From contig CAVXAT010000014.1 in assembly GCA_963759805.1 (NCBI GenBank), forward strand, positions 1-19,586: a stretch of 19,586 nucleotides of DNA. Direction: 5' to 3'. This DNA is from an uncultured bacterium. GTDB lineage: Bacteria > Babelota > Babeliae > Babelales > RVW-14. The position numbers and the translations under genes were made by a program. Below the pieces are notes generated by a model. The model was not told the DNA's origin. It saw only the letters and a program-made list of their open reading frames with translations, and did not search any database. Each line of letters starts with the position of its first letter. The stretch's first letter is position 1. Of this stretch, positions 5,695-19,276 are shown piece after piece.

Positions 5695-5772
5695 AAAATA
5701 TAATTCAAAGGCCTCTCTGCATAAGTATTTTGAGCTTCACTGAGTTATCAATCTGACGCTAAGCAAACAAAA

Positions 5773-5855
5773 GAGGGAAGGTACAGAGATAAACTGCTCC
5801 TGCTGCTTCCTTCCGGACCTGACAGATTTAACAGTCCACCAACTTACCTTCCCTC
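5773..5855 (-). ncRNA. ffs: Signal recognition particle RNA (4.5S, small bacterial type)
   Basis: Minus strand contains the conserved domain IV core GTCAGGTCCGGAAGGAAGCAGC inside a long hairpin closed by GAGGGAAGGTA/TACCTTCCCTC. Confidence 0.93.
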
Positions 5856-6045: not shown

Positions 6046-7194
6046 CTATTCTTTTTCTTTTTCAGCCTTGACTGCCTTAGCTTTAACATGTTCAGTTTTG
6101 ACTGACTCTGTTTTAACATGTTCAGCTTTAACTGGCGCAGCTTTGACAGACTCAGCTTTGACATGTTCAGTCTTAACTGGTTCAGCTTTGTGAACTGGTT
6201 CGGCTTTAACATGCTCAACTCTAACTGGCTCAGCTTTGACTGATTCGGCTTTCACCGGTTCAGCTTTATGTGTATGTGCTTTTACCGCTTCTTCTTTGAT
6301 TTCAACTTTTGCTTCAACTTTTGGTCCGGCTGCATGTCTTGGGGCTGCAGGCCTTGATGAAGATGTTGGCCTTCTATCATACTGTCTTCTGGGAGCTGGT
6401 CGCTCTCCGGTGCGATCTTCTCTGCCACGATCTTCTCTCCCTCTTGGATGGAATTCTCTAGCAGCAGATTCAACTCTTGGTTTTACTTGTCTTACCTCCT
6501 CAACCGGCTTGTTTTTCGCATAAATTGCTTGTCCCTCTTTGATCATAGAGGCAATGTAGTCAACCAGGAACTGAATTGATTTTGGAGAGTCATCATTTGC
6601 AGGAATGATGTGGGTAACACCAACAGGATCAGTGTTTGTATCAACAATTGCAATAACTGGAATTCCAAGGGCGTGGGCCTCTTTAACAGCTGCACGTTCC
6701 TTTTTGGCATCAACAACAATCAATGCTGCCGGAGGAAATGAAAAATCAATGATGCCGCCAACATTCTTTTCAAGTCGAGCAATCTCTTTCTGGAACATGA
6801 CGATTTCTTTTTTCTTATAATAACCGGCAGATTTTTCGGCCACATCACGAAGGTGTAAAAGCCTTGTGATAGCCTTTTTAACCTGTTCAAAATTTGAAAG
6901 AGTTCCGCCGACCCATCTATTTATAACATATGGGGTTTTGGTCTCTTTTGCCGCCTTTTCAACAATAGGTTGTGCTGCCTTTTTCGTTCCTACCAACAAA
7001 AACATGCCCCCTTGACTTGAGACTTCTTTTATAAGTCCACCAATTTTTTCTAATAAGAGAGCTGTTTTGGAAACGTCGATCAGATGGATTCTATTCTTTG
7101 AACCCCAAATATATGGGCGCATCTTTGGACACCAACGAGATGTCTTATGCCCAAAATGAACCCCCGCCTTAAGCATTTCACGTAAATCTAACAT
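6046..7194 (-). CDS. rpsB: 30S ribosomal protein S2 with ~150-aa low-complexity C-terminal extension
   Basis: MLKAGVHFGH..RW.PKM, RWVGGTLSNF and AIVDTN.DP..IPANDDS signatures; AAGGA RBS. Confidence 0.98.
   Translation of the reverse strand: MLDLREMLKAGVHFGHKTSRWCPKMRPYIWGSKNRIHLIDVSKTALLLEKIGGLIKEVSSQGGMFLLVGTKKAAQPIVEKAAKETKTPYVINRWVGGTLSNFEQVKKAITRLLHLRDVAEKSAGYYKKKEIVMFQKEIARLEKNVGGIIDFSFPPAALIVVDAKKERAAVKEAHALGIPVIAIVDTNTDPVGVTHIIPANDDSPKSIQFLVDYIASMIKEGQAIYAKNKPVEEVRQVKPRVESAAREFHPRGREDRGREDRTGERPAPRRQYDRRPTSSSRPAAPRHAAGPKVEAKVEIKEEAVKAHTHKAEPVKAESVKAEPVRVEHVKAEPVHKAEPVKTEHVKAESVKAAPVKAEHVKTESVKTEHVKAKAVKAEKEKE
6058..6285 (-). repeat. Coding 15-nt degenerate repeats encoding ~14 VK(A/T)E(P/S/H) pentapeptides
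   Basis: HKAEP VKAES VKAEP VRVEH VKAEP VHKAEP VKTEH VKAES VKAAP VKAEH VKTES VKTEH VKAKA VKAEK in the S2 tail. Confidence 0.85.
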
Positions 7195-12083: not shown

Positions 12084-12146
12084 TGTTAGTAATTAAGTAG
12101 AATATTGTGAGGTTATATTTTAATATTTTTTTTGGGAGGTTATATC

Positions 12147-13010
12147 ATGAATAGATTCAATAAGATTATGCTTCTTGGATTACTTTCTATTGTTACTGGC
12201 GCTACAAGCGTCAAGGGTATGGATACACAGCAGTTAGTCGCATACGATAAGGCTATGTCTGGAGATGCAATTCCAGCTGATTTCAAGCTTACTGCTGAGG
12301 ATTTGGCAAAATTTAACACACTTAGCGAAGAAGAAAAGGCCAAAATCGCAACAAAAATCGCAACTCTTTACGTTTGTGTACAGATCAAAAATGGTTCACC
12401 TATGTCTAGCCTTGTAAGTGGTTCCGGAGAAGTTACTTTGAATAAACAGAAAGTTCAATTATCTAACGAACAGGAATCGTTTGTAAGATCTTATTTTAGC
12501 GACATAGCTGCTTCAAAAGCTGGACAGCCTACTTCCAGTACACAACCACAAAAGCCTGGGTTCAGTATAAAGAAAAAAATCGCCATTGCTGCCGCAACAG
12601 CTCTTGTTTTAGCTACAGCATATGTAACTTTGGGAAACATGTACCATGATGCTAATTGTACAGTTGGATCCAATAGCGCTCTATGTGCAAGTACAACACC
12701 AGCAGACGCTGCCGCTGCCTATGCACTCACAGCATTAACGGCTGCCGGAACTGGATTAGCAACTGCGGGTATAGCAATAAAAACACTTGCACAAAAATTG
12801 TACGCGAAGGTCAGAGCGCAATACGAGAAGGCCAAAGCACAATGGGATAACACTCCTGAAGACATAGGATACAGTTGCTCAGATCGTCGTACCGAAGTAG
12901 AAAATCTTAAAGATTGTCCACCACTAGCACCTAGCCGTTGGGCTCAAGCTGCGCAGCCACTTGTAAATCTAAAAAACAACGTGTTGGGGCTTTTCGGTCA
13001 ATCACGATAA
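12147..13010 (+). CDS. Hypothetical exported protein with two Ala/Thr-rich hydrophobic segments
   Basis: ATG 12147 after GGAGGT; signal peptide ending VKG-MD; hydrophobic IAIAAATALVLATAYVTLG and AAAAYALTALTAAGTGLATAGIAI segments; followed by a palindromic terminator. Confidence 0.75.
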   Translation: MNRFNKIMLLGLLSIVTGATSVKGMDTQQLVAYDKAMSGDAIPADFKLTAEDLAKFNTLSEEEKAKIATKIATLYVCVQIKNGSPMSSLVSGSGEVTLNKQKVQLSNEQESFVRSYFSDIAASKAGQPTSSTQPQKPGFSIKKKIAIAAATALVLATAYVTLGNMYHDANCTVGSNSALCASTTPADAAAAYALTALTAAGTGLATAGIAIKTLAQKLYAKVRAQYEKAKAQWDNTPEDIGYSCSDRRTEVENLKDCPPLAPSRWAQAAQPLVNLKNNVLGLFGQSR

Positions 13011-13063: not shown

Positions 13064-13095
13064 AAGCAGGACGAGATTTAAATCTCGTCCTGCTT
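13064..13095. terminator. Bidirectional terminator-like perfect palindrome
   Basis: AAGCAGGACGAGATTT|AAATCTCGTCCTGCTT (32 bp perfect), flanked by A and T runs, between the convergent 12147 gene and the tRNA operon. Confidence 0.75.
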
Positions 13096-13117
13096 GCTTT
13101 TAATTGTCTGTAAAATA

Positions 13118-13199
13118 GGATGAGCCTGCCATCAGCCGTCGCCCAGGTGGCTATGGCTGACAGGTCCGAAGCCACAAGCGAAGCGAAGGCGAAGTATGG
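13118..13199. repeat. Diverged terminal repeat unit: CCTG-foot hairpin with a second, inverted copy nested at 13132-13164
   Basis: Removing 13132-13164 (reverse complement CCTG-TCAGCC-ATAGCCACCTGGGCGAC-GGCTGA) restores GGATGAG-CCTG-CCATCC-GAAGCCAC...GGCGAA-GTATGG. Confidence 0.75.
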
Positions 13200-13643
13200 T
13201 GCGCCCGACAGGACTCGAATGCACCTTCGCTCTACGTAGCTACGGTGCACAAGCCTGTGGCTAAAATTCTTTAATCAATATCAATCATTTAAAAGGGATG
13301 AGCCTGCCATCCGTAGCTACGAGCCGTTAGGCGAAGAGCGTAGGATGGTGCGCCCGACAGGACTCGAATGCACCTTCGCTCTACGTAGCTACGGTGCACA
13401 AGCCTGTGGCTAAAATTCTTTAATCAATATCAATCATTTAAAAGGGATGAGCCTGCCATCCGTAGCTACGAGCCGTTAGGCGAAGAGCGTAGGATGGTGC
13501 GCCCGACAGGACTCGAATGCACCTTCGCTCTACGTAGCTACGGTGCACAAGCCTGTGGCTAAAATTCTTTAATCAATATCAATCATTTAAAAGGGATGAG
13601 CCTGCCATCCGTAGCTACGAGCCGTTAGGCGAAGAGCGTAGGA
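13197..13643. repeat. Three identical 149-bp tRNA-linked tandem repeats, each holding an interrupted 3' end of tRNA-Arg
   Basis: Units start at 13197, 13346 and 13495, and the real tRNA begins at 13644 (149-bp period). Copies are identical by base-by-base reading. Confidence 0.95.
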
Positions 13644-13720
13644 TGGTGCGCCCGACAGGACTCGAACCTGTGGCCTACGGATTAGAAATCCGTTGCTCTA
13701 TCCAACTGAGCTACGGGCGC
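13644..13720 (-). tRNA. tRNA-Arg(TCT)
   Basis: Acceptor stem GCGCCCG/CGGGCGC; anticodon arm ACGGA-TTTCTAA-TCCGT; ACAGG-TTCGAGT-CCTGT T arm; encoded CCA. Confidence 0.97.
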
Positions 13721-13779
13721 AAATTAATAACCGTTCTCTCACATCGCACCAAACTACTTACCAAGTTATGCCAGTACTG

Positions 13780-13830
13780 CTTGTCCGCCATCCTTCGACA
13801 AGCTCAGGATGAGCGAGCCTTGCGACGCGA
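13780..13830. repeat. Degenerate CTTG-foot hairpin interrupted by a 24-bp half-palindrome of another repeat family
   Basis: CTTG-TCCGCC-AT[CCTTCGACAAGCTCAGGATGAGCG]AGCCTTGCGACGCGA, followed by the palindrome CTGAGTCGACTCAG (13834-13847). Confidence 0.55.
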
Positions 13831-13884
13831 GCGCTGAGTCGACTCAGTAAAATAATTTCAGAAAAATGTGATTTTGGAAGAAAA

Positions 13885-13960
13885 TGGTCGGGGCGGTCAG
13901 ATTCGAACTGACGACCCCTCGCTCCCAAAGCGAGTGCGCTACCAACTGCGCTACGCCCCG
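13885..13960 (-). tRNA. tRNA-Pro(TGG)
   Basis: Acceptor stem CGGGGCG/CGCCCCG; anticodon arm CTCGC-TTTGGGA-GCGAG; TTCGAAT T loop; CCA. Confidence 0.97.
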
Positions 13961-14037
13961 ACATTAATTTTTATCTCAAGTTACACTAATTTCAAACTTT
14001 ATGGAAGACGATTTTGATTATATTTTGATTATTATTC

Positions 14038-14114
14038 TGGGGTGAGCGACGGGGATTGAACCCGCGACATTCAGAGCCACAGTCTGACGCTCTACCAACT
14101 GAGCTACGCCCACC
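14038..14114 (-). tRNA. tRNA-His(GTG)
   Basis: G-1 and C73 present; acceptor stem GTGGGCG/CGCTCAC; anticodon arm TCAGA-CTGTGGC-TCTGA; CCA. Confidence 0.97.
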
Positions 14115-18690: not shown

Positions 18691-19276
18691 ATGAACTACC
18701 CCGCAGCAAGCTGACGGGGTATCTACAAATTTAATTTTCATCCCACAATGTCATTTGCCCAAGCTTACGCATACCTTTATACAAAGTTTTATAATCCTTT
18801 TCTGATCCTTGTGCCTTTACATACCTAGCTACGATGCCTTCATTCCCATACTTGCCAACAGTACTTAGATAAAATCCCTTACTCCAAAATTGTCCACCCC
18901 ATAACTTCTTTTTTACCTCCGGTGCACGTATAAATATTTCTCTAGCCGTGATACTTTTTATTATTCTTGTTATTTGTGTTGGACTGTACATCGGAACAGA
19001 CTGCACTAGAAAATGCACATGATTATTATCTGCGCCTATTTCAATGAAATCTATTTCGTATCTTTCTGAAATTTCTAAACAAATTTCTTTCAAGATTTCA
19101 TCAACCTTTTGGTCAAAAACTATCCTGCGATATTTTGTTGGGCAAACTATATGATACATGGTTATCGTAACGTTATGGCTTTTGTGGATATGCTTACTCA
19201 TGCCCGTAGTTTACCACTGTTTTTTCTTTTGTATTTATTTTATAATTAATTACGAGGCAAGCCTCGAGGAATTAAC
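18691..19276 (-). mobile_element. IS200/IS605-family insertion sequence, TnpA only (586 bp)
   Basis: Subterminal hairpins CGAGG-CTTG-CCTCG (left end, ~19254-19267) and TACCCCG-TCAGCTTGCTG-CGGGGTA (right end, 18697-18721). Right end finishes in TCAT; inserted 3' of TTAG; no target duplication. Confidence 0.88.
18731..19201 (-). CDS. tnpA: IS200-family Y1 (HUH) transposase
   Basis: 156 aa; YHIVCPTKYRR, HVH (HUH), IKSITAR, LWGGQFWSKGF and catalytic YxxxQ (YVKAQ). Confidence 0.96.
   Translation of the reverse strand: MSKHIHKSHNVTITMYHIVCPTKYRRIVFDQKVDEILKEICLEISERYEIDFIEIGADNNHVHFLVQSVPMYSPTQITRIIKSITAREIFIRAPEVKKKLWGGQFWSKGFYLSTVGKYGNEGIVARYVKAQGSEKDYKTLYKGMRKLGQMTLWDEN

Follow-up and report, generated by a model that had tools for sequence, protein, structure and literature searches.

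Among the closest described counterparts of the DNA considered here are REP elements, which are short, dispersed, extragenic imperfect palindromes with a 4-nt tag at the foot. In the passages devoted to them, they appear as tagged imperfect hairpins of 20-50 bp, which form inverted pairs with a linker (BIME), undergo local tandem amplification and are associated with the protein TnpA-REP (RAYT) (Ton-Hoang et al. 2012, PMC3333891; Di Nocera et al. 2013, PMC3733652). Their tags are GTAG or CGTC, and the CGTC repeats are described there as lacking a dedicated transposase (PMC3733652). How short palindromic repeats spread without a RAYT transposase is an open question. Another system, Ssn/NTS, pairs short tagged, many-copy dispersed hairpins with SsnA, a single-domain GIY-YIG protein, members of this type being ~80-95 aa long. 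According to the main text of the report on it, the cleavage site of SsnA in ssDNA lies a few nt upstream of its cognate hairpin, and the authors remark on the IS-like NTS-ssnA-NTS layout, a mobile origin being only hypothesised (Chenal et al. 2025, PMC11893778).

Two further precedents concern duplicated tRNA ends. The E. coli tyrT gene is reportedly followed by tRNA-linked 178-bp repeats, about three tandem units, each of which carries the tRNA 3' end. Attachment (att) sites within tRNA genes include a sub-location in the T loop. Integrative elements are described as leaving one intact and one partial tRNA copy (PMC9897764). The partial copy at such sites starts in the variable loop or T stem. 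The window analysed here, a whole stretch of 19,586 nucleotides from an uncultured bacterium of the Babelales, contains an array that recalls each of these systems.

The array behind tRNA-Arg(TCT) and its empty counterpart

The tRNA-Arg(TCT) gene lies on the minus strand at 13644-13720 (ARAGORN and Rfam) and is the last gene of a His-Pro-Arg cluster, of which tRNA-His and tRNA-Pro are found upstream on the same strand (13885-14113), with a promoter-like match at 14166-14139. Nucleotides 1-73 of the tRNA correspond to 13720-13647, and its CCA (13646-13644) is at the same time the first three bases of the stem of a 46-bp hairpin, hairpin A. Behind the gene, TRF detects a tandem array with a period of 149, 3.3 copies and 99% matches at 13183-13666, the periodicity being perfect over 13196-13666, and the three identical units that had been predicted from the letters alone were recovered as letter-identical.

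Read in the tRNA sense, each 149-bp unit is composed of hairpin A, a 41-bp AT-rich spacer, tRNA nt 46-53, the 34-bp hairpin B and tRNA nt 54-73; nt 1-45 are absent. The two hairpins are placed inverted to each other in each unit, which agrees with the BIME-like pair of the original prediction. In unit 1, hairpin A occupies 13601-13646 between tRNA nt 73 and 74, with its CYTG tag read on the plus strand, and is followed on the minus strand by the spacer (13560-13600), the 8 nt of tRNA positions 46-53 (13552-13559), hairpin B (13518-13551), whose CTTG tag is read in the tRNA sense and which stands between G53 and T54, and nt 54-73 (13498-13517). Unit 2 (13349-13497, minus strand; hairpin A 13497-13452, hairpin B 13402-13369) and unit 3 (13200-13348, minus strand; hairpin A 13348-13303, hairpin B 13253-13220) are identical to it. 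In silico removal of the 34-bp hairpin B restores exactly nt 46-76 of the tRNA, including the CCA, just as had been claimed.

The array ends on the minus strand in a diverged A-type hairpin (13199-13125), inside which a second family member is nested (13164-13132), followed by 29 bp of remaining native 3' flank (13096-13124) and by a perfect 32-bp palindrome with a 14-bp stem (13064-13095), which scores as a terminator on both strands, in line with the palindromic terminator of the original prediction. A fourth, diverged unit had also been proposed; the array does end in a diverged copy, but this is an A-type hairpin with a nested hairpin, after which the native flank begins. That the inner units are identical and the terminal copy diverged agrees with the late amplification that had been suggested. 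The array was further expected to lie within the tRNA transcript, and it is indeed situated between the tRNA and the terminator; however, a weak terminator-like match (6-bp stem plus T run) is found inside each unit (five such matches over the region, where 1.3 would be expected), so readthrough of the array cannot be taken for granted.

The ancestral end of the gene was obtained by comparison with three congeners, in which it reads nt 73-CTC, then a T-run or flank and the terminator, with no array and no encoded CCA. The CTC of the congeners stands behind hairpin A in the window, so the CCA was most likely brought in by hairpin A as part of its stem. The spacer resembles the native 3' flank of the congener G003 (1/1000 shuffles as good, p=0.001) and, more weakly, those of G002 and G001 (shuffle p 0.089 and 0.405, respectively), while the flank remaining behind the array aligns to the G003 flank better than any shuffle (0/1000 as good) and a similar palindrome is present at the orthologous place in G003. 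The alignment of both spacer and terminal flank to the G003 flank indicates that the unit is a local duplication of the tRNA tail and its flank, not foreign cargo. Two other readings of the spacer were rejected: an IHF site, the same stretch being present in the array-free G003 flank, and a fused nuclease-gene leader with last codons, a likeness by eye only, for which the native G003 flank is an adequate explanation.

A comparison with relatives had been proposed along with the original prediction. The array is absent from all three congeners, and none of 29 other loci of the family, some of which end at contig edges, bears the 149-bp array; two of them (G004 and G033) carry independent related structures, and gene-bearing twins as well as a related array in G090 were found. 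A narrow T-loop junction pattern matched 0/60 relatives, and a looser pattern, used thereafter across the order, matched 8/261 genomes; its eight non-self matches comprise five split tRNA duplicates, one misparsed tRNA-end hairpin and two non-tRNA sites. Among the eight genomes of a further pattern search, four are split tRNA duplicates and one is a nuclease-gene junction. The exact 17-nt junction gave 58 matches in genome contigs, about chance level, none of which on inspection had a hairpin and tRNA tail, and the T-loop junction pattern gave 0 matches in viral contigs.

Several other features of the window were noticed. The interval between tRNA-Pro and tRNA-Arg (~13774-13835) contains a mosaic made up of a second hairpin family and a CYTG-family remnant. 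On the minus strand, a long hairpin is located behind tRNA-Ser(GGA) (~5772-5855), the core of which we take to resemble bacterial SRP RNA; ribosomal protein S2 (6046-7194) has a ~150-aa C-terminal extension encoded with 15/30/45-bp tandem repeats; and an IS200-type Y1 transposase gene (18731-19201; PF01797) has short terminal hairpins and no CYTG flanks. On the plus strand, a 292-aa ORF (12132-13010), for which no Pfam or NCBIfam family was found, converges on the terminator.

A CYTG-tagged hairpin family at tRNA positions

Hairpins A and B are members of one CYTG-tagged, REP-like family with a common architecture: CYTG, a 6-nt stem, a 3-nt bulge, GC-loop-GC, a 3-nt bulge and the complementary stem. 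The left arm is matched 92 times in the 1.5-Mb genome, compared with 11-16 times in each of three shuffles, and for 38/92 of the matches a tRNA or tmRNA gene is no more than 800 nt away. The original idea that a REP-like hairpin splits a duplicated tRNA 3' end is thus supported. Among 39 distinct elements, the columns of the outer stem contain several two-sided pair types, a result that is partly circular because the elements were picked for at least five of six pairs. The base before the tag is G in 29/44 contexts, and the CYTG motif is present in 64/101 genomes searched, with a reversed control near zero.

Within tRNA genes, the family occupies fixed positions (12/13, 53/54, 57/58 and 73/74), both in the source genome and across the order, and at least 16/42 tRNA genes of the source genome have a hairpin beginning at nt 74. 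The hairpins also nest in one another and in the TTCG/A site of a nuclease gene, which points to targeting by a short motif. At two loci (L189 and L078), the hairpin is found inside GIY-YIG genes at TTCG/A, the same motif as that of the T-loop 57/58 site. The hairpins were also considered as tRNA introns and this was rejected, as excising 74 of them in silico yielded no tRNA gene beyond the 42 found in the source genome.

These hairpins share with REP and BIME elements the short, dispersed, extragenic and imperfect palindrome, the 4-nt tag, the inverted pairing with a linker and the local tandem amplification. In contrast, the tag is CYTG, neither GTAG nor CGTC, the stems are bulged and vary with compensatory changes, and the partner is a GIY-YIG protein and not a Y1 HUH enzyme; no Y1 gene flanked by CYTG hairpins was seen by eye in the 350-nt flanks of the five Y1_Tnp matches of the source genome. 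The fixed insertion positions in tRNA genes likewise have no counterpart in the REP passages of PMC3333891 and PMC3733652. The likeness to Ssn lies in a small single-domain GIY-YIG protein beside many-copy tagged hairpins. Unlike in Ssn/SRM, the hairpin is bulged, two-stemmed and CYTG-tagged, and 0/88 hairpins, with none in the array, match the SRM motif, which is narrow in the source genome (only two matches of the regular expression genome-wide); the protein is distant from the SsnA-like copy of the source genome; and the strong association with tRNA and tmRNA genes and the tRNA-restoring duplications stand apart from a system in whose main text the word "tRNA" occurs 0 times (PMC11893778). 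By its CYTG tag, the lack of a flanked Y1 gene and the 0/88 SRM matches, the array is a member of neither REP/BIME-RAYT nor Ssn/SRM.

Gene-bearing twins and the breakpoints of split tRNA copies

In eight genomes of the order (G029, G004, G060, G014, G033, G090, G040 and G023) and one metagenome contig, a gene for a GIY-YIG protein of ~80 aa takes the place of the spacer, a link that the original prediction had missed. These twins consist of an intact tRNA, hairpin A, the GIY-YIG gene, 3-10 nt of tRNA, hairpin B and the tRNA tail, the two hairpins standing at nt 73/74 and 53/54 in G029, G004 and G060. The host genes are Ala, Thr, Arg, Leu and Ser tRNAs, and the tRNA piece begins within ~7 nt of the end of the GIY-YIG gene, which is damaged in some twins (G060, G004) and lacks its stop in G029 and G023. 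At tRNA-Arg(TCT) of G090, two identical 436-bp gene-bearing units are closed by a different hairpin; with the same tRNA, tandem units and a different closing hairpin, this array follows the same plan as that in the window, within which no GIY-YIG nuclease gene was found.

The representative protein, P0001, is a single-domain small GIY-YIG of 80 aa (PF01541, E 8e-15), with Tyr, Gly, Arg27 and Glu63 kept in at least 93% of 30 GIY-YIG sequences. It has no NCBIfam family at E<=0.001, its nearest PDB match is the UPF0213 protein 1zg2 (E 0.002), and its similarity to the SsnA-like GIY-YIG of the source genome (C1:132943) is weak (E 7e-4 over 33 aa). Matches occur in 163/261 genomes, and the gene follows a tRNA or tmRNA gene of its own strand at a distance of less than 400 nt in 21/28 loci of the order and in 37/67 metagenome loci, which are partly redundant. 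Counting kin as if independent, the protein is present in 43/53 genomes with at least two hairpins vs 20/47 with fewer. Tags facing inward were found upstream of the gene in 12 of the 28 loci, downstream in eight and on both sides in six, the last arrangement occurring in 1.6% of random windows. The source genome has two copies of this nuclease clade, behind tRNA-Ser(TGA) and tRNA-Asp; the copy on contig C5 is a frame of 69 aa, divergent beyond ~60 aa, and that on C18 is cut by the contig end.

Two other small GIY-YIG types of the source genome (C1:266306, C9:54564 and C1:132943) are each bracketed by an inverted hairpin family of their own, and three nuclease/hairpin pairs thus seem to coexist in one 1.5-Mb genome. 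In other taxa, five loci (L132, L142, L144, L148 and L150) have a GIY-YIG gene between a tRNA and a partial 5' or 3' copy of it that is split by different hairpins.

Inspection of other tRNA genes, which had been suggested as a check, revealed split tRNA pieces beside intact genes at three further loci of the source genome. At tRNA-Val(CAC) on C19 (locus L005; 8447-9310), one 3' copy is split at 53/54 and nine tandem 5' copies are split at 12/13, the latter as two unit types (2x102 and 7x69 bp); the congeners G002 and G003 have a single 5' copy of this tRNA each, with a different junction. The other two loci are a CAT tRNA on C11 and tRNA-Arg(TCG) on C9.

Taken over 28 split duplicates (25 curated and three added, not all independent), the dead copy in every case breaks 2-15 nt 5' of the tag, with a median of 8 in the 25, its other side runs to the tRNA end, and the intact gene is without exception located 5' of the tag. 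With breakpoints placed at random, as much as 53-64 nt could remain on the tag side of the dead copy. The hairpin stands at 12/13 in 14 events, with the tag antisense, at 53/54 in nine, at 57/58 in four and at 64/65 in one, and the 5' end of the tRNA is duplicated in 14/28. Four of 29 rows were dropped (the second row of the C19 array, the whole-gene relic on C9 and two misparsed nt-73 hairpins, L232 and L069), and where the script had paired a neighbouring isoacceptor (L069 and L079), the pairing was corrected. Because the detector looked for an intact copy no more than 1.5 kb away, it misses cases such as G198 (2 contigs, 91% complete), whose sole Ala(GGC) match is full-length, with a hairpin at 12/13 in the D arm and no duplicate (L225, C1 ~209190-209300). 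This is either a dead gene or one in which the insert is tolerated, and it suggests that the hairpin hits the resident gene first.

Origin of the array and its bearing on short palindromic repeats

The array consists of three tandem copies of a non-functional tRNA-Arg tail that carry two members of the hairpin family, and it is probably what a selfish element composed of these hairpins and a ~80-aa GIY-YIG nuclease left behind, a scar without its gene. The observations behind this reading are the composition of the unit, the hairpin family, the empty site, the gene-bearing twins and the breakpoint pattern. Hairpin B would have entered the resident tRNA-Arg gene at G53/T54, which would kill it. 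The nuclease would recognise the hairpin on single-stranded DNA, as SsnA does its own repeat, and a break, likely a single-strand cut of the Ssn type, would be made a few bases 5' of the tag of hairpin B. Repair from an empty sister allele would over-copy the gene and its flank, rejoin at the cut and restore the tRNA, leaving an intact gene and flank joined to nt 46-53, hairpin B and nt 54-73. Later, unequal recombination or slippage may have multiplied the 149-bp unit, or the assembler may have over-counted it. The cut-directed step itself, in which the nuclease cuts a few bases 5' of the tag and repair duplicates the gene, is modelled on SsnA and is offered tentatively, at somewhat less than an even chance.

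Several points weigh against the scar of a hairpin and nuclease element. A hydrolytic nuclease offers no obvious route to precise hairpin insertion, the window lacks the nuclease gene, the two copies of the source genome are diverged or cut, and the activity of the nuclease is putative. The T-arm breakpoints (nt 46-53), taken alone, also fit a T-loop att site. Protein and hairpins do not fully coincide, as 10/53 hairpin-rich genomes have no protein match and 20/47 hairpin-poor ones do, the hairpins fail the SRM motif, and inward tags on both sides are limited to 6/28 loci.

An unlikely course of events is that microhomology duplications of tRNA ends by the host came first and that hairpins moved by another enzyme (e.g., Y1 HUH in trans) accumulated in the spare copies, where they do no harm, with the GIY-YIG gene as a passenger at the same safe site. 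The resemblance of spacers to native flanks, the five Y1_Tnp matches of the source genome and the short-motif targeting seen in hairpin nesting and at the TTCG/A site of the nuclease gene all speak for it, but it does not predict dead copies that end 2-15 nt from a tag at nt 12, 53, 57 or 64, the flanks of the five Y1 genes are free of CYTG hairpins by eye, and in G198 the insertion is in the sole full-length gene. Less probable still is an origin from a tyrosine-integrase element with T-loop attL and attR, whose interior was deleted and which was later hit by the hairpin and amplified; this is the att origin that the original prediction had entertained. The duplicate covers the T arm (nt 46-73) and begins at nt 46, like those of T-loop att sites, the spacer contains a match to the IHF consensus, and G083 has a split 3' copy 1.3 kb downstream with cargo between. 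Integration, moreover, is described as typically leaving one full and one partial tRNA copy (PMC9897764). Against it, the IHF-like stretch is shared with the array-free G003 flank, the spacer is native-like, the single tyrosine recombinase (PF00589) of the genome lies on another contig (C1), and the cases inspected show no integrase between the copies. Unlike in tRNA att duplications, the copies here are separated by 11-90 bp of flanking DNA or by a single nuclease gene, 5'-end duplications are equally common (14/28) and breakpoints follow the hairpin. For a role as a decoy for integrases, also put forward before, no evidence was found.

A functional role for the array, as an RNA or a regulatory module that yields CCA-ended RNAs of ~149 nt or tunes tRNA processing like the tyrT repeats, is very improbable. 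It does lie between a tRNA and a strong terminator, and the unit folds better than 200/200 shuffles (z -3.5), but pairing between hairpins A and B accounts for most of the fold, a terminator-like site is present in every unit, the array is missing from 3/3 congeners and the 29 other family loci, and only the three tRNAs reach the Rfam gathering score, with no other family near it. The CCA-ended small RNAs that had been envisaged find no support: the units lack tRNA nt 1-7, and with them the 5' strand of an acceptor stem, and the CCA is buried in a stem. As in tyrT, the tRNA gene is followed by about three tandem units that each carry its 3' end; unlike there, a dispersed hairpin interrupts the tRNA piece, and the array is private to the lineage. 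Most likely, the array is inert DNA rather than an RNA gene. A question of a different kind is whether the cell has a single unit and the threefold count is an assembly error, which would be compatible with the scar of a hairpin and nuclease element and which we regard as possible though doubtful. The units are letter-identical, three is the count in a draft assembly of 21 contigs, and the best of the 24 listed sequencing runs contained only 0.08 of the sampled words. On the other hand, tandem split units occur in independent assemblies (G090, 2x436; G103, 2x86; G176), the array on C19 has two unit types, and the one-contig genome G105 has a single split duplicate.

A literature search, mainly of the main texts of openly accessible papers, returned no description of a hairpin/GIY-YIG tRNA system. 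New here are the empty site in the congeners, a gene-bearing array found at the same tRNA in G090, and the breakpoint rule of 2-15 nt. With some reservation, and rather less than evenly likely, there may be a minimal class of mobile element, in which a ~80-aa GIY-YIG ssDNA nuclease and a CYTG hairpin would home to conserved tRNA motifs (nt 12/13, 53/54, 57/58 and 73/74), regenerate the disrupted gene by cut-directed duplication without integrase or HUH enzyme, and be able to supply the CCA, the present array being a non-autonomous product.

The array itself is probably inert. Since tRNA genes provide fixed coordinates, insertion sites and repair junctions are recorded in them to the base, which leads to the prediction that the tagged strand is cut 2-15 nt 5' of CYTG. 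If true, this would be a new sequence-specific ssDNA nuclease specificity and, besides integrases, a second way in which partial tRNA duplicates arise; island finders would mistake such duplicates for att sites.
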